A stretch of 64,000 bases of DNA from an uncultured Verrucomicrobiae bacterium (GCA_963772365.1 CAVYXA010000001.1:1184001-1248000); one strand, 5' to 3'; numbered from the stretch's first letter, positions 51,324 to 64,000 are shown. Notes: generated by a model from the sequence alone, not told the origin. Numbers and translations are program-made.

Positions 51324-51332
51324 GTCTTAATG

Positions 51333-51391
51333 TTGTAGGGCAACCGCTCCGGTTGCCAACAATTTTGGCAGGCGGGGCGCCTGCCCTACAA
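51333..51391. repeat. GTAG-type REP doublet, family A
   Basis: TTGTAGGGCAACCGCTCCGGTTGCC...CTGCCCTACAA. Confidence 0.87.
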
Positions 51392-51392
51392 T

Positions 51393-52880
51393 TCATTTTA
51401 GATCCGCGAACAGCTTCGGCTGGCCGTCCTGATCGGCGAGCGCTTTGGCCCGGTTCTCTCGTTTTTCCATGATGAATTTGTCGAGGGCGGGATCGACCGG
51501 CAGCGGATAATTACCTGTAAAACAGGCGAGACAGAATTGGTTTATCGGTTTGCCGGTCGCGCGCACCATTCCTTCGACATCGAGATAGCCGAGACTGTCC
51601 ACACCAAGATACTTGCAGATTTCGTCGATCGACATTTGGTTGGCGATCAATTTTTCCGGATCGGGAAAATCGATCCCGTAATGACAGGCAAAGCGATGCG
51701 GCGGACAGCTCACGCGCATGTGCACTTCCTTCGCGCCGGCTTCGCGCAGGTTCACGACTCGCGCCCGCGCAGTGGTTCCGCGGACGATGGAATCATCGAC
51801 AACCACGACCCGTTTTCCGGCGACCATTTCCTTGACCAGGTTCAATTTCACTCGCACATCGAAATCGCGAATGAGCTGGCTCGGCTGCAAGAACGTTCGG
51901 CCGATGTAATGATTGCGCACAAAAGCGTGCTGATAGGGAATCTTCAGTTCCTGCGCAAAACCGAGCGCGGCATAATTTCCGGAGTCGGGCACTGGAACAA
52001 CGATGTCTGCTTTCGCTGGGAATTTTCTGGCCAGCTCGCGCCCCATTTCCGTGCGCACTTTGCCGACATTCACGCCGCCGATGATGCTGTCTGGCCGCGA
52101 AAAATAAACGTATTCGAACATGCAAAATGCCGGCTGCTGCGGCTGAAACGGAAACTCGGAGCGCAATCCTTTTTCATCGATGATGAGCACTTCGCCGGGC
52201 GCGATCTCGCGGATGAACTCGGCGTGGATCAGATCAAACGCGCAAGTTTCTGAAGCGAGGATATATGCATCATCGAGCCGGCCAAGGGAGAGCGGCCGCC
52301 AGCCAAATGGATCGCGCACCGCGATCAATTCTCGTTCGCTCATGATGATCAGCGAAAATGCGCCTTCGATTCGGCGCAACGCCGCCAGAACGCTGGAACC
52401 GTTATCCGCCGGACGCGCTAACAAATGCAGAATGATTTCGCTATCCGCCGTCGTTTGGAAAATCGAGCCTTTGCGCTCCAATTCATCTCGCAAAGCATCG
52501 GCATTTGTCAGGTTGCCATTGTGGGCGATCGCGATCTGGCCGCGCACGCAATCGACCACGAACGGTTGCGCGTTTTTGATCGTGCTGGTGCCGGTGGTTG
52601 AATACCGCGTGTGTCCGACCGCGCGCGTACCCTTGAGTTTCTCCAGTTCTTCCTGCCCGAAGACCTGCGACACGAGTCCCATTCCTTTTGCCTGCAAAAA
52701 GGTCTGATCGGGTCCGCTCGTTGTGACGATCCCGGCGCTTTCCTGCCCGCGATGTTGCAGGGCGAAAAGTCCATAATAGGTCAGCACTGCAGCGTTTGGA
52801 TGCCCGAACACGCCGAACAATCCGCATTCGTGCTGCGGATAGGATTCACGCTCGGTCGGCTCGGGGATGTCGATCTTCAC
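51393..52880 (-). CDS. purF: Amidophosphoribosyltransferase
   Basis: E-CGLFG propeptide site, LQHRGQE and VDDSIVRGTT; start uncertain. Confidence 0.95.
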   Translation of the reverse strand: MKIDIPEPTERESYPQHECGLFGVFGHPNAAVLTYYGLFALQHRGQESAGIVTTSGPDQTFLQAKGMGLVSQVFGQEELEKLKGTRAVGHTRYSTTGTSTIKNAQPFVVDCVRGQIAIAHNGNLTNADALRDELERKGSIFQTTADSEIILHLLARPADNGSSVLAALRRIEGAFSLIIMSERELIAVRDPFGWRPLSLGRLDDAYILASETCAFDLIHAEFIREIAPGEVLIIDEKGLRSEFPFQPQQPAFCMFEYVYFSRPDSIIGGVNVGKVRTEMGRELARKFPAKADIVVPVPDSGNYAALGFAQELKIPYQHAFVRNHYIGRTFLQPSQLIRDFDVRVKLNLVKEMVAGKRVVVVDDSIVRGTTARARVVNLREAGAKEVHMRVSCPPHRFACHYGIDFPDPEKLIANQMSIDEICKYLGVDSLGYLDVEGMVRATGKPINQFCLACFTGNYPLPVDPALDKFIMEKRENRAKALADQDGQPKLFADLK

Positions 52881-53069: not shown

Positions 53070-53597
53070 TCAGAAATCGTCCGGCACATTGACCTTGTCG
53101 ATCTTAAAATTCTTCACCGTGTTCCCGAAGGCTGGCGAAGTATTGTGCAGGAACCAGGCGGCCGAACACCATTTGTAATTCTCGGCGATGGCAGTCACGC
53201 CATGATGGACTGGGTTATGATGAACGTAATTCAGTCGGGCCAAATAGGAGCGTTCAAAGGTGATATGGCTATCCCAAAATTGGTACCAAACTCTTCGACC
53301 AGGGGCATTGTCCCAATGATTCAATTTTTTGGACGTCTGCATGTGCAGCTTTCCCAAAAATTTCCGGAGTGTCCCGGGCTCCTGCGGCGAAGCCGCGATA
53401 AAATGATAATGATTCGCTAGAACTGCCCAAGCACGGAGGTCCCAGCAAAATGCCGCAGCCGAGGCAAACAAAGACTCGACGAAAAAATTAAGACGCATCG
53501 GTGAGTTCAAATGCGGAAGCTTTTTGTAAGTCCCGGCCGTAACCATATAAAGCCCAGGCTCGAAAAGCCAATGCACCGGGGCATGCGGCCACTTCAT
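53070..53597 (-). CDS. REP-associated tyrosine transposase (RAYT/TnpA-REP, Y1 HUH family), apparently intact
   Basis: YMVT..T, WAVLANHYH (HUH), WYQFWD and LNYVHHNPV..G; flanked by REPs. Confidence 0.88.
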   Translation of the reverse strand: MKWPHAPVHWLFEPGLYMVTAGTYKKLPHLNSPMRLNFFVESLFASAAAFCWDLRAWAVLANHYHFIAASPQEPGTLRKFLGKLHMQTSKKLNHWDNAPGRRVWYQFWDSHITFERSYLARLNYVHHNPVHHGVTAIAENYKWCSAAWFLHNTSPAFGNTVKNFKIDKVNVPDDF

Positions 53598-53638
53598 GCC
53601 GTAGTGAATGTCGAAAATTTGATCAACTGGCAACGTCT

Positions 53639-53699
53639 TTTTGGAGTGCGCGGACATGTCCGCGCTTTCAAAGCGGCGACATGTCGCCGCACTCCAAAA
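53639..53699. repeat. GGAG-type REP doublet, family D, upstream of the RAYT
   Basis: TTTTGGAGTGCGCGGACATGTCCGCGC...GCGGCGACATGTCGCCGCACTCCAAAA. Confidence 0.85.
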
Positions 53700-57636: not shown

Positions 57637-57654
57637 GGCGTGTCCGGTCTCAAA

Positions 57655-57716
57655 TTGTAGGGCAACCGCTCCGGTTGCCGCCGCTTGGTCTGGCAAGCGA
57701 AGCGCTTGCCCTACAA
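57655..57716. repeat. GTAG-type REP doublet, family A
   Basis: TTGTAGGGCAACCGCTCCGGTTGCC...TTGCCCTACAA; contains the stop codon of the second RAYT. Confidence 0.87.
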
Positions 57717-58202
57717 TTTCAAATCTGGTAATTCGTAGCGATACGGCCAATCTTCTGGTCGTTTTATCAAGCTGGCTCGTACCGGGTTTTCTTCAATGTA
57801 TAGCCATTTTTCATACACCGATTCCTAGGCCCGTAGGAGGCGGTCAAAACAACCTGGTTGCCATTTCCAGGAAGCATGTAGTTCCTGTCGCATCCAGCGT
57901 TTTAATGCCGCCGCAAGATTTCCGACCCTGGCCTCGCGATCTTTTGTTGGCGCGGCCAGAATATGAAGATGATCAGGCATGACTACGGCGGCGAGCATAT
58001 TCCAGTCGCTCAGCTTCGCCGCAGCATTTTTGAATGCAATGAAAGCGCGGTCATTTCCCAGGACAGGTTTTCGATTCGCCACACAAATCGTGACGAAATA
58101 AGTCACGGATTGGTCCCAGCGTAACCAAACAGGAATCCTCGGTGGATGACCTATTGTCCTAATATTGCCAGGCGATGCGCCCGCCCTACAACACGAAACC
58201 AT
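57711..58202 (-). pseudogene. Second RAYT, interrupted by an in-frame TAG at 57825-57827
   Basis: YFVTIC, VVMPDHLH, WQPGCFDRLLRA*ESVYEKWLYIEENPVRASL..RPEDWPY. Confidence 0.85.
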
Positions 58203-58248
58203 GAATGCCGGTGCTCTTACAAATTGTAGGGCAACCGCTCCGGTTGCC
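58170..58248. repeat. Family A REP halves upstream of the second RAYT
   Basis: GCCCGCCCTACAA at about 58179-58191 and TTGTAGGGCAACCGCTCCGGTTGCC at 58224-58248. Confidence 0.78.
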
Positions 58249-58333
58249 ATGTCTTCATCATTATTTTGGCTTCGGGTTTGGTCATTCTCCTGGGCGGTTT
58301 GCGTTTCAATTCTAAATCGCGGAAGATTTCCTG

Positions 58334-59749
58334 ATGGCTTTTGATCTCAAAGAAATCATCGCCGCGCGACTCGGCGAAAATTATCAACTGCACGAGAAGC
58401 ACGTGAATCGCACGCTCGTGCAGGCCCAGCGTGTCATCGGTTTCGATAAAGTCTATGCCCGGGCCGAGGGCGCATATCTCTACGACATGGATAATGTCGC
58501 CTATCTCGATTTCCTCAGCGGCTACAGCGTTTTCAACATCGGCCGCAATCATCCCGTGGTGAAGAAAGCGATCCGCGACGTGCTCGATCTCGATTTGCCG
58601 AACATGGTGCAAATGGATTGTTCGCTCTTGAGCGGCTTACTGGCGGAAGCGATCGTCAAACGCACACCGTCCCATCTCGATGCCGTATTCTTTTGCAACT
58701 CCGGCACCGAAGCGACGGAGGGCGCGATCAAATTTGCGCGCGCCGCTACGGGCCGGAAACGGATGATCTCATTGGCGAGCGCGTTTCACGGGTTGAGCGT
58801 CGGTTCGCTTTCGCTCATGGGCTGCCAAAGTTTTACCGAAGGTTTTGGACCGTTGATGGAAGGATTCGACGCGCGCGTGCCGCTCGATAACATCGACGAG
58901 TTAGATCGACAATTGCGTTCGCGCGATGTCGGCGGGTTCGTGATCGAGACCGTTCAGGGCAAAGGTTGCCAGACATCGAAGACCGATTTTTTCCCGCGCG
59001 CACAGGAACTTTGCCGCAAGTACGGCACACTCTTAATTTCTGATGAAGTCCAGACCGGACTTGGTCGGACCGGGAAAATGTTTGGCTTCGAACATTGGAA
59101 CTTGGAGCCGGACATCATCACGCTCGCGAAAACGTTGAGCGGCGGCTACGTCCCGTGCGGCGCGATCGTGACGAGGCGCGACATTTACCAGAAAACATTT
59201 TCGCGGATGGACCGTTGCGTTGTTCATTCAACGACGTTCGGCCGGAACAATTTAGCCATGGCCTGCGGACTGGCCGCGCTGGAAGTGATCGATCAGGAAA
59301 ACCTGGTCGAGCGCGCGGCGAAGATGGGCGCGCTGCTCATGGAGAAGATCGACAATCTGAAGTCGAAACATTCGTTCATCAAAGAAGTCCGCGGCAAAGG
59401 GTTAATGATCGGGATCGAATTTCACGAGCCGAGCGAGTTCAAGCTCAAGATGGCCTGGAAACTTTTGCACAAGATCGACAAGGTGTTGTTCGCACAGATG
59501 ATCGTGACCCAGATGTTGAGCAAATATCGGATCCTCACCCAGGTCGCCGGTCATGCCATGGACGTGATGAAAATTCTTCCACCGCTCATCATTGAGGAAA
59601 AAGAAGTGGACATATTCGTGAATGCGCTCGACGGGGTGCTTACCGAGTGCCGCAAATTCCCCGGCCCGATGTGGGAGCTGGGAAACAATTTCGTCAAAGC
59701 CGCGCTCGGCTCGAGAAAATCATCCGAGCCAAAGCCGGTTTCGGCGTAG
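58334..59749 (+). CDS. Class III PLP aminotransferase, HpnO-like
   Basis: YLDFLSG, GRNHP, NSGTEA, DEVQTG.GRTG and AKTLSGG; N-terminus resembles HpnO. Confidence 0.85.
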   Translation: MAFDLKEIIAARLGENYQLHEKHVNRTLVQAQRVIGFDKVYARAEGAYLYDMDNVAYLDFLSGYSVFNIGRNHPVVKKAIRDVLDLDLPNMVQMDCSLLSGLLAEAIVKRTPSHLDAVFFCNSGTEATEGAIKFARAATGRKRMISLASAFHGLSVGSLSLMGCQSFTEGFGPLMEGFDARVPLDNIDELDRQLRSRDVGGFVIETVQGKGCQTSKTDFFPRAQELCRKYGTLLISDEVQTGLGRTGKMFGFEHWNLEPDIITLAKTLSGGYVPCGAIVTRRDIYQKTFSRMDRCVVHSTTFGRNNLAMACGLAALEVIDQENLVERAAKMGALLMEKIDNLKSKHSFIKEVRGKGLMIGIEFHEPSEFKLKMAWKLLHKIDKVLFAQMIVTQMLSKYRILTQVAGHAMDVMKILPPLIIEEKEVDIFVNALDGVLTECRKFPGPMWELGNNFVKAALGSRKSSEPKPVSA

Positions 59750-59754
59750 CGCAA

Positions 59755-59779
59755 TTGTAGGGCAAGCGCTGCGCTTGCC
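59755..59779. repeat. Single family A REP
   Basis: TTGTAGGGCAAGCGCTGCGCTTGCC. Confidence 0.75.
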
Positions 59780-60057
59780 GTGCATACCTCGGGCTGCAGC
59801 GAGTCTAGTTCACGGTGCGTTTTTCGATTGGTTTGAATAGTCGAGTTCAGTCGCGCTTCTAACTTCCCTTTTGCAGTCCCGGAAAACGCGGGACGATGTT
59901 TACGCAGGAGTCATCACGCGATGTGGGTGGCTCTAGCCTTGAAGCGTTCGGATGGTAAGCGAAGCAGCGCGATCGGCTAGTCTGCTTCGTGAGAAGCTGG
60001 AGTTTCGGTAATTTTTAGAAATTAGCGCAGGCTTGCGCTTGGTTGTCGCGCCTACGC

Positions 60058-60200
60058 ATCTAACCAGACCAAGATGAGCGACCAGTGCAAAGTAAAGCGC
60101 GCGGCACGGCGCGGACGAGAATACCGAGCGGTGGGAAGGCTCGGGATAGACGGCCAAGCCGCGCAGGTAGCCGCCGTTCGCTCCCATCTCACGGTTATGC
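60058..60200 (-). other. Integron attC site (143 bp)
   Basis: Minus strand: GCATAAC-CGTGAGATGGGAGCGAAC...GTCGCTCATCTTGGTCTG-GTTAGAT. Confidence 0.78.
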
Positions 60201-60290
60201 GTCTTGCGCGTCATTAACAACAGCGTCAGCTTCAAAATCAATTAGCCACTCCGGATCATGGATGGAGTCGCGTTATCATCGTCATCGCCG
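60195..60290 (-). pseudogene. Decayed RidA/YjgF-like C-terminal remnant
   Basis: DPEWLIDFEADAVV...DA* ends in the R'' box; AMTMITRL lies just upstream in an adjacent frame. Confidence 0.45.
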
Positions 60291-60319
60291 ATATGCGAAA
60301 CGCTTTCGCTAACGTTCTC

Positions 60320-61264
60320 TCATTGCCGTAGATCTGTCGCTAGCATATTCATGCAGAAAGCTAGCTTCCACGCATCGCCATCTTTGACATAAACCGAGTT
60401 ACCGTGCACGGGCGGAACTTTTTCGCCGTAGCAGGTGCCGTCCGCCGTGCCCGTATGCATCAGCAGCCTGACGGTGGGCGAGAGCGCTGTGGCAACTCCA
60501 TCAGTCACGTCGACGCTCTTGATCTCGCAGATGGCACCGATCCAAGCTTTGATGGTGTCAGGCTTATTGCTGTAAGAGTTGCCGAAGATGTCGATAAACG
60601 AAAGGTCGGCGCTCGTTAGATCTTTGAGTTTCTGAGCGTCGTGCGCCTTCCAAGCTTCCCAAACGGATTTTTCCACGGCGACCAAAGCGTCGGTGCTTGG
60701 GTCGGTCGACGTGATCCCAGTTTCCTTGGCCGGCTGCGCAGGCGGCACCGTAGTTTTAGGCGAATCCTTGGGATCGATGATTGGGTTCTCGCCATGGAAC
60801 GCAGCCAGCCACTTGCCGCCGCCGCGAATCCAGATCGTGGCGGTCCGCGTCGGGCTCGGGATCTTCGCCGGTTTACCGTCCGCCGCCGTACACGTTCCGT
60901 CGCATGTGCTCCGATAGCTCAATACGTATGTGTCGGCGTCGATCTTTGCCATCCAAGGCTCGTCGAGGTTCCAGGTTTTAACATCACACTTGTTGCCAGC
61001 AATCATCTTCACGATGGCAGCCCTGTCCATCCGCTGCCCGCTTTGGCGCATGACGAACTTCTCGCTCAGTAAATTCTCGAAAAATTTCGCGTCACCTTTG
61101 CTGTAGGCTTCATCCGCCTGCTTTTCTAAAACCAGCAGTGTGTCGATTGTCGGTGACTGCGCGACAGAGTCAGAGGCATTACTACCGTTTTGGGCGTCCA
61201 CCCCGCTGTCCACAAAATAGGCCGAGGCTATCAACGTTAAAGTTAGCAGATTGTTCGGTTTCAT
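60320..61264 (-). CDS. Exported protein with tandem NTF2-like (DUF4440) domains, cassette-array gene
   Basis: Signal peptide; two repeats of LEK...EA...D....L and VW/VY..G..W.A. Confidence 0.8.
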   Translation of the reverse strand: MKPNNLLTLTLIASAYFVDSGVDAQNGSNASDSVAQSPTIDTLLVLEKQADEAYSKGDAKFFENLLSEKFVMRQSGQRMDRAAIVKMIAGNKCDVKTWNLDEPWMAKIDADTYVLSYRSTCDGTCTAADGKPAKIPSPTRTATIWIRGGGKWLAAFHGENPIIDPKDSPKTTVPPAQPAKETGITSTDPSTDALVAVEKSVWEAWKAHDAQKLKDLTSADLSFIDIFGNSYSNKPDTIKAWIGAICEIKSVDVTDGVATALSPTVRLLMHTGTADGTCYGEKVPPVHGNSVYVKDGDAWKLAFCMNMLATDLRQ

Positions 61265-61570
61265 AATTTTCTTTCTAGTTGAAAAGGTGCTTCCCGGCGG
61301 GAACCGCGGCATTTCATCTAACGAGAATAAGAAGAGCGACGGCGATCTTTGCAAAACAATACGGCGGGAGTGCGTGAGCGTGAAGACCTGAATCGCACTA
61401 GGGGAGCCGGGACCTTGGATGAAGTCCAAGCGAGCGCGCGCGTCGTGCCCGGTAGAAGTGTGGAAGTCATCAAGTCATCTCAAAAGTGGAAGCGTACAGC
61501 GGTCCGCCGTTCGCTCCATCGCCTAGATGGCATGTAAGGGTGCGGGCGAGTGGTTAAGCTCACCCGCACT

Positions 61571-62674
61571 ATGCAAAATACAATCGTTCATAACGAAGGG
61601 GCGACCTCACCCGAGGGCGCCGTTGGTAAAGTAAAGCTCCCGTGCTCGGTGATCAAGCTTGGACTGGACATGCACGCCCGGGTCTATGTGGTAGTGGCCC
61701 AATACGATCAGCTCTTGCCCAAGGCGCCTCGACGCTTTGCCCCTCCCGAGTTTGTTCCCTGGGTGGAAGCAGTGTTGCGAAGGGGTCACACGGTTCATGT
61801 GGTTTATGAGGCGTGCGGGTTTGGCTTCGGACTGTATCGGCAGTTGTGTGCCGCTGGAGCACATTGCTGCGTGATTGCGCCGCGCAAACTCGACGAACAG
61901 GGCACGGGAATAAAAACCGATCCGCGCGATGCTCTGACATTGTGTCAGCGGCTCTCGCGTTATGTGGAAGGCAACACCTGGGAACTGGCCGTGATTCGGG
62001 TGCCGAGCGAAGAAGAAGAACAGGCCCGGCATGTTTCGCGTCAGCGTGGCCAACTGGTGCATCATCGGCAGAAGCTCGAAGCCCAAGGGCGCTCGCTGCT
62101 AATCAATCACGCGCTGGCAGCGCCGGCTCATTGGTGGAAACAACAGACCTGGAGCCGATTGGGCAAACATCTGCCGGTCTGGATCAGGCTACGGCTGGAT
62201 GTGGCACGACCCGCTCTTTTGAGTTTAGAGGAGCAAATTAACGCCCTAACCAGTGAATTGGAAGCGGCGGCGGGGGCTTGCATACCGGCCGGGATCGGCA
62301 AACTCACCAGCGTGGTGCTCACTCGCGAGATCTGTAATTGGCACCGGTTTAACAATCGGCGCGCGATCAGTTCTTACACCGGACTGTGTCCCGGCGAGCG
62401 CAGCAGCGGGAGTAAACGAGTTCCGGGCAGTGTGACCAAACGAGGCAACCCGCGGCTAAGAGCCGCGCTGGTCGAGTGCGCCTGGCGCATGGTGCGTTTC
62501 CAGCCGCAATATCCACCAGTTAAAAAACGGCTCGCTATCCTGGCAAAGGACGCGCCCGCCACCGGCGCACAACGCAAAAAAGCCATCGTCGCTGTGGCCC
62601 GGCATTTGGCCGTCGATCTGTGGCGCGTGCACACCGGACGCTGTAGCGCAGCCCGGCTCGGCCTAATTAATTAA
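61571..62674 (+). CDS. IS110-family DEDD transposase/recombinase
   Basis: GLDMH, YEACG, KTDPRDA, YTGLCP.ERSSG, KRGNPRLR and AVARHLA motifs. Confidence 0.93.
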   Translation: MQNTIVHNEGATSPEGAVGKVKLPCSVIKLGLDMHARVYVVVAQYDQLLPKAPRRFAPPEFVPWVEAVLRRGHTVHVVYEACGFGFGLYRQLCAAGAHCCVIAPRKLDEQGTGIKTDPRDALTLCQRLSRYVEGNTWELAVIRVPSEEEEQARHVSRQRGQLVHHRQKLEAQGRSLLINHALAAPAHWWKQQTWSRLGKHLPVWIRLRLDVARPALLSLEEQINALTSELEAAAGACIPAGIGKLTSVVLTREICNWHRFNNRRAISSYTGLCPGERSSGSKRVPGSVTKRGNPRLRAALVECAWRMVRFQPQYPPVKKRLAILAKDAPATGAQRKKAIVAVARHLAVDLWRVHTGRCSAARLGLIN

Positions 62675-62960
62675 CTACTCAAGTTCGAGGGGAACAGTTT
62701 TGGAACGTGGCGCGTGTCCGGGATCTAACCTGAACCGTTAAAACGACGAGCTTCGTCGCTTTAGATTGGACCGCGCCAAAGTTCCGCTTCAGTCGAGACG
62801 GAATAAGTCACATTGCGCTGTCAAAATTAACATCGACATGCGCGGATAGGAGTATCAGCCGCTGAACAATCCAAAGCGCGCACCAAAAGCGGAAGCGTTC
62901 CTACCCAAGTTCAACCCCACAACCTGACAAACCAATGTAACCGTCATCCTCAAAACTTAT
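62675..62960 (+). ncRNA. Candidate seekRNA/bridge RNA region
   Basis: Structured non-coding region (stem 62702-62719 with 62768-62785) with short matches to the target flanks and the circle junction; boundaries unknown. Confidence 0.6.
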
Positions 62961-62996
62961 CTTTGACACCCTTCATAGGGGTTAGATGATTAGCTG

Positions 62997-63320
62997 TCAT
63001 AATCTCACGAGCTTTTCTTCTGCGAGTCTCTGAACGAACGGCAATTCAGACTCGACGATCCAGAACTCATCTGGCGTGTCATGAAATCCGGCGAGTTCGT
63101 CCCGGCCTCGCTTCAATTTGAAATCGCGCGTCGCACGGATGCGGGCGTTCGTGCACCAACTCGCGATGAGCTCGGGAAACTTCGAGCTCGGATAACGCTT
63201 GCGGTCTATGATGGCTGTCGTGCCATCGGAGTATTCCTGGAGCAAACGCCGCAAGACCGCTGAGTAACGTTTCGTACGAATGGCAATCACCTTCGGCGAC
63301 TCGCGACGCGTCCACATCAT
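62997..63320 (-). CDS. Hypothetical gene-cassette protein
   Basis: ATG overlaps the R' box of one attC; stop lies 9 bp before the next attC. Confidence 0.72.
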   Translation of the reverse strand: MMWTRRESPKVIAIRTKRYSAVLRRLLQEYSDGTTAIIDRKRYPSSKFPELIASWCTNARIRATRDFKLKRGRDELAGFHDTPDEFWIVESELPFVQRLAEEKLVRL

Positions 63321-63441
63321 CTAACGAGACACAAGATCAGCTACCGCGCCCGGGAGCGCGCGTGGCCGCAAGTTGAAGGTTCTAGCTACTCTCAGCGGGG
63401 AAGCAGAACGGGGCGCGGTTAGCTGCATCGCCTGGTTAGAC
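63319..63441 (-). other. Integron attC site (123 bp), intact
   Basis: Minus strand: GTCTAAC-CAGGCGATGCAGCTAACCGCGCC...GGCGCGGTAGCTGATCTTGTGTCTC-GTTAGAT. Confidence 0.9.
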
Positions 63442-63924
63442 CCCGTTACCATGCAGCGCGATGCGAGAAGGTGCCCACTTACCGGTGGTAACCTGCTTGC
63501 AAATCACGATCTCCCAAGACTCTGGCGACATCTTTCGTGTAAGCTCGACCGCGCGCGCCCATTCTGGTGTGCCAGGTCTGATAGAGTATGGCTGGTAGTC
63601 TTCGGGTCTCTGAGGCGCTTCCGATGCAAGCCACTTAACGTAAATCGTATATGCTTTCTTGTCCGAGTCGCTCATCTGAGCCCACGCGTCGTCAGGAACG
63701 AGCGCACGCAAAACATATTTTCGTGAGGACGGCTCTTCGACGACCTTCGGTGAGGCGAAAAACGAACTGCCGTCGTCGCCCGGGTCTGGATGCATCAGCG
63801 TGAATGCAAACGAAACCTTAAGACCCTGCTCGATGCGAGGATCCTTCTCCATAGCTCGCTGCAGGCGATCTTCGGCGCGAGCAAATACCGCCAGAGCTAG
63901 GAGTAGCGCGATGGGTAGCCTCAT
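63436..63924 (-). CDS. Hypothetical exported gene-cassette protein
   Basis: Signal peptide MRLPIALLLALAVFARA; TAA stop lies within the R'' box. Confidence 0.75.
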   Translation of the reverse strand: MRLPIALLLALAVFARAEDRLQRAMEKDPRIEQGLKVSFAFTLMHPDPGDDGSSFFASPKVVEEPSSRKYVLRALVPDDAWAQMSDSDKKAYTIYVKWLASEAPQRPEDYQPYSIRPGTPEWARAVELTRKMSPESWEIVICKQVTTGKWAPSRIALHGNGV

Positions 63925-64000
63925 AGAGGCTTCCCGTCGCGCTTTTCCCATCCGTCAATGTATCCAGCCTTGAAGCCGACTTTGTAGGCTTCAGATGCGT

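Follow-up and report, generated by a model that had tools for sequence, protein, structure and literature searches.

Within a stretch of 64,000 nucleotides from an uncultured Verrucomicrobiae bacterium (the window; positions are counted from its first letter), we find an insertion sequence that is, with high probability, an intact bridge-RNA recombinase element that moved recently and has a guide directed at the R'' end of the attC sites in integrons of the Chthoniobacterales type. Sequence comparison shows where the element ends, its site 1 nt inside the GTT of R'' and its orientation, as well as an RNA fold of two loops, in which the 5' target guide changes with the flank and the donor guide with the element's own end. 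The habit of landing in attC sites is known, whereas the lineage and the cut point are new, and, as far as can be read from sequence, attC targeting by RNA-guided insertion sequences has evolved at least twice.

The element belongs to the IS110 superfamily, covers 1455 bp (61525-62979, plus strand) and splits an attC 1 nt inside R''. Its left flank, CATCGCCT, ends at 61524 and its right flank, GGTTAG, begins at 62980, with zero duplicated bases at the insertion. The transposase is encoded on the plus strand and the cassette ORFs on the minus strand, so that the element lies antisense to the cassettes. In all of this the original prediction of an IS inserted into attC without duplication, with a transposase running against the cassettes, was right, and a second copy and relatives agree with the junctions. 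The features of the element are as follows.

61525 to 62979 (+): complete element of IS1111-type layout, 1455 bp, with a second copy 99.66% identical
61525 to 61570 (+): short left end, 46 bp, beginning with a 7-bp extension that opens with the donor core, AG
61532 to 61542 (+): left sub-terminal repeat, within the left end
61540 to 61569 (+): hairpin directly 5' of the start codon, seen by inspection only
61571 to 62674 (+): intact DEDD recombinase/transposase, 367 aa (PF01548 and PF02371; NF033542, 184 bits)
62675 to 62979 (+): long right non-coding end, 305 bp
62699 to 62900 (+): predicted bridge/seekRNA with a target-binding and then a donor-binding loop, boundaries approximate (17 of 25 pairs compensatory, 38 sequences)
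62963 to 62968 (+): TTGACA, -35 hexamer of a putative junction promoter whose -10 in the left end is weak (2 of 6)
62967 to 62979 (+): right sub-terminal repeat (62967-62976) followed by the 3-bp extension AGG

The ends are fixed independently of the window, by the ends of relatives and by a second full copy in the genome (C1:823670-825124; 5 differences, ~99.7% identity), which occupies the same position in an attC of 124 bp. A third, truncated genomic copy has a right junction of the same type. With the longer of its two non-coding ends downstream of the gene, and with extensions of 7 bp and 3 bp outside the repeats in the absence of a target duplication, the element has the layout of the IS1111 family, as had been proposed. 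The imperfect inverted repeats do lie at the predicted offsets of 7 bp and 3 bp; the repeat itself is weak, with 6 of 10 positions matching ungapped (by inspection) and 10 of 10 only if a one-base bulge is allowed, and 79 relatives among the matches listed have 5-9 of 10 ungapped. In place of the perfect or near-perfect sub-terminal repeat of 11-13 bp that belongs to the IS1111-family definition, there is thus a bulged one of 10 bp.

The TTGACA hexamer is present in 61 of 79 relatives, and TTGAC in all 79; the best -10 of the putative junction promoter reaches only 2-4 of 6 positions and is poor (2 of 6 in 45 of the 79). A hybrid promoter reading outward from the right junction (10 of 12) was discarded as a chance-level match, 1 being found where 0.8 were expected. 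The hairpin at 61540-61569 is kept with changed sequence in relatives and sister elements, and it might possibly limit read-through expression of the transposase. The plasmid collection contains no DNA match to the element, exact protein look-ups gave none for the transposase, and a search of Rfam over 59700-64000 returned no real family and two chance-level matches.

The surroundings of the element are those of an integron.

60058 to 60200 (-): attC closing the DUF4440 cassette, by inspection without the CG..T and GGTTAG target features
60320 to 61264 (-): next cassette ORF, a tandem DUF4440 (SnoaL-like) protein
61316 to 61524 (-): larger part of the interrupted attC, with R' (61316-61322), L' (61331-61337), L'' (61513-61520) and four of five spacer bases
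62980 to 62987 (-): cut-off part of this attC, namely the last spacer base and R'' (62981-62987)
62997 to 63320 (-): cassette ORF, 107 aa, without a Pfam or NCBIfam family, its stop codon 9 nt from R''
63319 to 63441 (-): attC belonging to the preceding cassette, 123 bp, intact and empty
63436 to 63951 (-): cassette ORF, 171 aa, no family

When the two parts of the interrupted attC are rejoined, they give a site of 217 bp in which R' still folds with R''. It has the R'/R'' and L'/L'' boxes and the extrahelical base of an integron attC, and an integron integrase is encoded nearby, ~1.5 kb past the end of the window (C1:1249522-1250460; TIGR02249, 485.7 bits at a cut-off of 265). The site is atypical in its length and in its R'-L' spacer of 8 nt. 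The genome contains an uninterrupted relative of 215 bp (C1:1301668-1301882), the two long sites being 74% alike over 184 bp, and most attCs of the genome measure ~123 bp. The sites at 63319-63441 and 60058-60200, like others of the genome and of relatives, have an L'-R' spacer of 8-9 nt, which is longer than in class 1 attCs, and an R''-L'' spacer of 5 nt; L'' of the 60058-60200 site is longer by two bases. Clusters of attCs away from the intact integrase were seen at C1:823108-825240, C2:14537-15513, C2:45521-48258 and C3:766750-768050, together with a second, broken integrase match at C2:13468-14142. The attC at C2:45996-46120 has one additional G ahead of R'' and contains a short palindrome as an insert, and a TTTCGGGGTTC-like stretch, as found there, marks the break of the truncated IS copy at C2:46438.

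An attC must fold to serve as a substrate of IntI. The 1455 nt that now separate R'' from L'' should stop this folding, which would block the single excision of both adjoining cassettes, the one at 62997-63320, as the original prediction had it, and also the DUF4440 cassette. The two cassettes and the element could still move, as a unit between the sites at 63319 and 60058. Insertions of this kind should freeze or fuse cassettes, an effect for which the experimental evidence is limited according to the part of PMC11616780 consulted.

How general the choice of attC is can be judged from relatives. The genome scan gave 138 confirmed matches, of which the best 80 correspond to 76 loci with 52-88% identity. 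Adding the two genomic copies yields a set of 78 loci, and adding the best 80 of 525 metagenome loci and 11 further genome loci yields 93 distinct sites of the clade, besides 24 of sister elements; these loci are kin, not independent trials. Among the matches listed, the left end is found in 70 and the right end in 62 of the 78 loci, the right flank begins with GGTTAG in 53 of 59, and T is the last base of the left flank in 68 of 69. Of the 53 testable loci listed, 34 have an L box that matches in at least 6 of 7 positions once the flanks are rejoined, versus 9.5% of controls, in a test whose 200-nt limit misses the window's own copy. The stop codon of an opposite-strand ORF adjoins the right end in 39 of 56 of the listed matches, versus 281 of 2000. 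A strict motif for the distal arm of attC is present in at least 60 of the 93 sites of the clade, versus 0 of 24 sites of sister elements and 52 of 5000 random windows. The other 33 of 93, among the matches listed, fail this motif, including the copy in the window; many of them are visibly degenerate or doubly interrupted attCs. The prediction of an attC-specific element is borne out by these counts, and its proposed check, that the flanks of homologues should rejoin to attC, comes out positive for most and negative for L174 and a few that look off-target (L008, L023, L049). Three of the loci (L030, L011 and L028) contain another small element directly left of the IS, with inverted ends (GAGGCTGTGTGA...), which breaks the L'' of the attC that the IS occupies; L030 has it complete.

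Within the best 80 of the 138 matches, 69 of the 76 loci are titled Verrucomicrobia, Chthoniobacterales, Udaeobacter or Spartobacteria, and glnA-, ftsH- and dinB-like genes that flank such loci are 76-79% identical in nucleotides to those here, in agreement with the non-proteobacterial host that had been surmised; a Chthoniobacterales-like member of Verrucomicrobiota is the probable host. The remaining seven, on short contigs titled Acidobacteriota or enterobacterial, may be mis-binned. The RNA end was matched in 17 of the 61 genomes of this family that were searched, including the element's own genome and G407. We found no paper on this lineage in the published literature, within mostly open-access reach. 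Six short motifs of the clade are absent, in a word search rather than an alignment, from the ISfinder transposase file that supplements PMC11187229 (a source consulted in part), which hints, if weakly, that there is no named element close to this one.

The transposase has all the residues expected of an IS110-superfamily enzyme, with D33, E80, D117 and D120 in the DEDD RuvC-like domain and an SG motif (S279-G280) in the PF02371 domain. The best Foldseek match of its structure model (pLDDT 92.7) is IS621 (E 4e-12). With 367 aa it exceeds the 330-350 aa of the IS1111-family definition, and it falls outside the tight 100/100 clade of IS4321, IS5708, ISPsy16 and ISPa21.

The right end folds better than shuffled sequences (z -2.4). 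The consensus of 38 chosen sequences has two stem-loop-stem units, with 17 of 25 pairs changing on both sides, and the consensus pairing holds in 92.5% of cells versus 30-49% for slid controls, in the same 38-sequence alignment from which the structure was derived. A stem between ATCTAA (guide) and TTAGAT was dropped, because ATCTAA varies while TTAGAT does not. As judged by covariation only, the non-coding end encodes a guide RNA to target and donor, as is characteristic of the IS110 superfamily. This RNA, which would account for the targeting, is absent from the original prediction; its guides are the following.

62723 to 62730 (+): 5' target guide ATCTAACC, complement of the right flank (attC R'' and the CC target core), by covariation
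62754 to 62766 (+): 3' target guide, in which CG (62757-8) and T (62762) equal the left flank with a one-base offset
62763 to 62766 (+): rest of the 3' target guide, with AG (62763-4) as donor core and AT (62765-6) as putative handshake bases, by analogy with IS621
62807 to 62814 (+): probable 5' donor guide pairing with the left end, a weak call with a fit of only 4 nt, as against 7 nt in some sisters
62846 to 62854 (+): 3' donor guide ATAGGAG, then putative handshake TA; changes together with the two terminal bases of the right end

The complement of the top strand (62723-62730) thus lies 5' of the match to the bottom strand (62754-62764), which is the guide order of the IS1111 family. Among the matches listed, guide and flank covary at +7 in 44 of 53 cases (cluster-level p 0.0006, 31 clusters) and at +8 in 34 of 53 (p 0.0012, 31 clusters), 14 more at +8 being G-T wobbles. 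In held-out metagenome loci, again among the matches listed, the signal at +7 recurs (17 of 21, p 0.001), while that at +8 is not repeated (13 of 21, null 11.3, p 0.17). Occupied attCs match the guide at +7 in 24 of 29 cases, versus 20 of 49 for neighbouring empty attCs of the same loci (p 0.0004), and at +8 in 21 of 29 versus 17 of 49. Since occupied sites match better than empty ones of the same loci, the attC composition of the host is not the explanation. The truncated third genomic copy has the same guide, yet its flank is mismatched at +7 and +8. The empty target at 63426-63440, which the original prediction regarded as still available, is indeed identical over 15 nt; the next base differs from the guide, which leaves the site at 63319-63441 with a mismatch at +8. 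An empty attC that matches the guide fully lies just outside the window (C1:1248260-1248383).

Sister elements, which target other sequences, have guides that fit their own flanks: the mean is 7.3 versus 4.1 nt for 5' guides against right flanks (32 elements, p 0.0005) and 3.3 versus 1.3 nt for 3' guides against left flanks (19 elements, p 0.0005). Within the attC clade, the 3' target guide shows no covariation among the matches listed. Its agreement with the left flank is confined to the invariant CG and T, and positions -2 and -3 are unconstrained. The flank itself is conserved as far as -14, farther out than any guide reaches. Given in addition that the insertion site is the unpaired R-L spacer of the folded attC, one might propose that the site is chosen by the protein or by the hairpin, with the RNA match in a secondary or assisting role. 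We consider this improbable, because the covariation of guide and flank survives the within-locus control, and because the extended conservation of the flank is expected from the resemblance of these attCs to each other. A further point against it is L174, a member of the attC clade with 63% identity, in which both target guides are recoded and match the non-attC site with an AG core in which it sits; on its guides and flanks, L174 is a case of natural retargeting.

Turning to the donor loop, ATAGGAG (62846-62852) equals the right end abutted to the left end. Among the matches listed, the donor guide agrees with the last two bases of the element in 32 of 32 sisters, where these read GC, GG, GT, TT or TC, and with the terminal bases in 83 of 85 elements with an attC guide. 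In two copies of other type (L079, ISPa21-type, and L081, IS4321-type), a stretch led by GGATA equals the terminus of their own right end, like the ATAGGAG donor guide. Read antisense to the gene, the donor junction is a CT core preceded by A-T, and the RNA has AG and then AT on the 3' side of its target loop. The core columns of the guide follow the core of the target, with CC for GG, CT for AG and TT for AA. As to the putative handshake, the AT of the target loop fits the invariant donor in 28 of 28 attC rows and 6 of 10 sister rows, and the first base of the donor loop equals the flank at +3 in 81 of 85 attC elements and 20 of 32 sisters.

The two cores are not the same in the attC clade. 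The left end begins with AG in 140 of 141 elements called among the matches listed, and the single GG left end (L040) was set aside as a deletion artefact. The sisters have a matched AG core in 35 of 37 targets, whereas in the attC clade the target has GG against AG in the donor in 79 of 85 (CC when read antisense; both counts among the matches listed), and its 5' guide carries CC. The other targets of the 85 are three with CT, two without one G and one that is rearranged. An identical two-base core in donor and target, as in IS621-type elements, is therefore a property of the sisters and not of the attC clade. None of the 78 empty attCs scored has an A at the core position. We considered whether the AG right flanks of L038, L050 and L155 reflect repair towards the donor, but 3 of 85 versus 0 of 78 are too few. 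The mismatch is also present in retrieved copies of ISPa21 and IS4321 and absent from a copy of ISUnCu1. The motif EACG occurs in 85 of 85 elements with an attC guide that were read, most sisters having EAGP or EAGC, and it aligns with the loop of IS621 that touches the core. As a cause of the mismatch it was rejected, because it reflects a single evolutionary event, is also present in L174 with its matched core, and keeps Gly where the sisters have Pro.

The mechanism that we propose begins with a circle in which the ends of the element would be abutted. No such circle was seen for the attC clade among the loci examined or in viral contigs, which also contained no relative and no match to the circle junction. 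In one sister (L192), on a whole contig with overlapping contig ends, the right end abuts the left end at position 593, which may be a likely circular intermediate or else a tandem assembly. RNA made from the 3' end would load the recombinase, and recombination would follow the scheme of IS621 on the strand antisense to the transposase, that is, the top strand of attC. In IS621, according to the part of PMC11208158 consulted, a core guide and an A81/U82 handshake pair are used; the cut is described as lying 3' of the core. Here, too, the cut would be 3' of the two-base core, for which the donor has CT and attC offers CC. If the sequence of the exchanged strand is then fixed, the left junction would keep the donor core and the right junction the target core, and the scheme predicts the junctions exactly as observed. 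With the attC inactivated, the adjoining cassettes would no longer excise singly and could move together with the element.

An RNA-guided reaction of another chemistry, by transfer and copying of a single strand or by a blunt cut, would make the core mismatch a bookkeeping term only; we judge it unlikely, though deserving of attention. It fits the observed junctions as well, and would sit well with their one-sidedness, with the mismatched first two bases in the ISPa21 and IS4321 copies, and with the part of PMC11187229 consulted, in which ISEc11 gave no detected empty rejoined site and the authors caution that the families may use different mechanisms. However, in each loop the two guides overlap, and do so on the same two bases, the sisters keep AG in nearly all of their targets, the guide core columns covary with the target, and the scheme of IS621 also predicts one-sided outcomes if the unligated strand is repaired.

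Keeping to the IS621-like scheme, we tentatively put forward that one lineage of bridge recombinases, widespread in soil, has evolved efficient recombination between a CT donor and a CC target and could thereby reach a position in attC that lacks CT; this is possible, and we hold it with reserve. If true, nature would provide an enzyme that does without a matched core, the matched-core sisters would serve as controls, IS1111-type elements would run the reaction of IS621 on the opposite strand, and the descriptions of the IS621/IS110 and IS1111 families in terms of "core" and "no duplication" would be reconciled. Whether IS1111-type and IS110-type elements have their mechanism in common can be tested directly on the CC/CT mismatch, which also bears on the core constraint of bridge editing.

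The original prediction set the element beside the attC-targeting IS1111 subgroup described in Proteobacteria. This needs a correction, in that the element is no outlying member of that subgroup: cut point, inverted repeat and transposase lineage all differ. In a tree of 37 rows, the new clade (100/99) is nested among sisters that do not target attC (100/100), while ISPa21 and ISUnCu1 fall into the core IS1111 clade (100/100). These two are the only known IS1111-attC members in the tree, on which the clade test rests; ISKpn4, ISPst6 and ISPa25 are outside it. Monophyly of the new clade with ISPa21 and ISUnCu1 is rejected (168 log-likelihood units, p-AU 1e-56). Towards the root of this tree, long branches come together, and the deeper splits are less certain. 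Tetu & Holmes (2008) and Post & Hall (2009) reportedly treat the IS1111-attC group and may describe other insertion points. Attention to attC-targeting IS1111 elements and their seekRNAs is not new (PMC11187229 and PMC3001079, in the parts consulted), and Table 1 of PMC13604230 (source seen in part) places their cut 6 nt from the GTT of R'', as against 1 nt here. We confirmed the 6-nt cut, inside L'', on two plasmid copies (L079 and L080), which are named ISPa21 and ISUnCu1 after PMC7232449 and PMC10232235 (in the parts consulted) and are called "IS110 family transposase" in their records.

It is very improbable that the element is a divergent member of this group that was transferred to Verrucomicrobiota and shifted its cut point later. 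Such a history would account for the use of the same attC arm, the antisense orientation, the 7/3 extensions and the RNA in the 3' non-coding region with the same order of guides. Against it, the transposase is only 26.7% and 27.1% identical to the ISPa21- and ISUnCu1-type enzymes and thereby no closer to them than to IS4321 (26.1%), the AU test rejects a single clade, the nearest relatives (40-48% identity, among the matches listed) target other sequences, and the cut point and the inverted repeat differ. The element thus shares attC insertion with the group without forming a clade with its ISPa21/ISPst6 subset, as judged by two representatives, and its membership is largely refuted. Instead, a clade centred on Verrucomicrobiota would have acquired attC targeting when its guide was reprogrammed, independently of ISKpn4 and ISPa21. 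A separate lineage with a different cut point means that the attC-landing habit evolved more than once, here in Verrucomicrobiota of soil. What this case adds is an independent origin, a new cut point, a natural series of reprogrammed guides, and a matched versus a mismatched core; these natural reprogrammings, within the clade and among its sisters, allow the core and each of the four guides to be read.

Of the systems with which the element can be compared, the closest are the Verrucomicrobiota sisters from genomes and metagenomes (G054, G294 and L132-L209), which share the left end, the RNA scaffold and 40-48% protein identity (63% for L174). They differ in that their guides match REP-like or other non-attC sites, with the AG core matched in 35 of 37. 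The G054 sisters sit in repeats similar to REP-like palindromes of the window, which begin with TTGTAGGGC (51329-51393, 57651-57719, 58158-58249 and 59751-59779). Such palindromes flank an ORF (57825-58250, minus strand) with a weak Y1-transposase match (PF01797, E 2.5e-4, below the cut-off), and a similar-looking ORF beside them (53070-53657, minus strand) has no Pfam match. The best named match among 40 listed plasmid matches is of ISSso6 type (29.5% identity locally, 32.6% globally); it lies on the same broad side of the tree but is not the sister group, has no DNA similarity in the plasmid collection, and its locus has, by inspection, no attC-like flank.

With IS621 (PMC11208160, PMC11208158 and PMC13626964, in the parts consulted), the element shares the fold, the catalytic residues, two loops with four guides and the CT donor core, and the donor A6-T7 faces a putative AU handshake pair when the element is read antisense. 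It differs from IS621 in having the RNA after the gene and the DNA frame flipped, in its identity of 22-23%, and in its natural target core, which is CC rather than CT, at a position that is almost invariably T in IS621.

By layout, the element is IS1111-like; it falls outside the strict definition, as given in the part of PMC11187229 consulted, on repeat quality, protein size and clade. A broader usage, as in the part consulted of PMC11208160, whose Extended Data Fig. 10c aligns IS1111 guides to a core, might class it with the IS1111 group by layout. With the IS1111-attC group in particular (ISKpn4, ISPst6, ISPa21, ISPa25 and ISUnCu1), it has in common the R''/L'' arm, the antisense orientation, the missing duplication and the 7/3 extensions, as well as a guide RNA in the 3' non-coding region with the complement of the top strand first (PMC11187229, in part). 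In contrast, the members of that group cut 6 nt from the GTT of R'', inside L'', and not 1 nt from it, they have a near-perfect repeat of 13 bp where the element has a bulged one of 10 bp, and their transposases of 347 aa form a tight IS1111 clade, whereas the enzyme described here has 367 aa, is ~27% identical to them and belongs to another clade. The element thus behaves as the IS1111-attC elements do, but stands outside their group.
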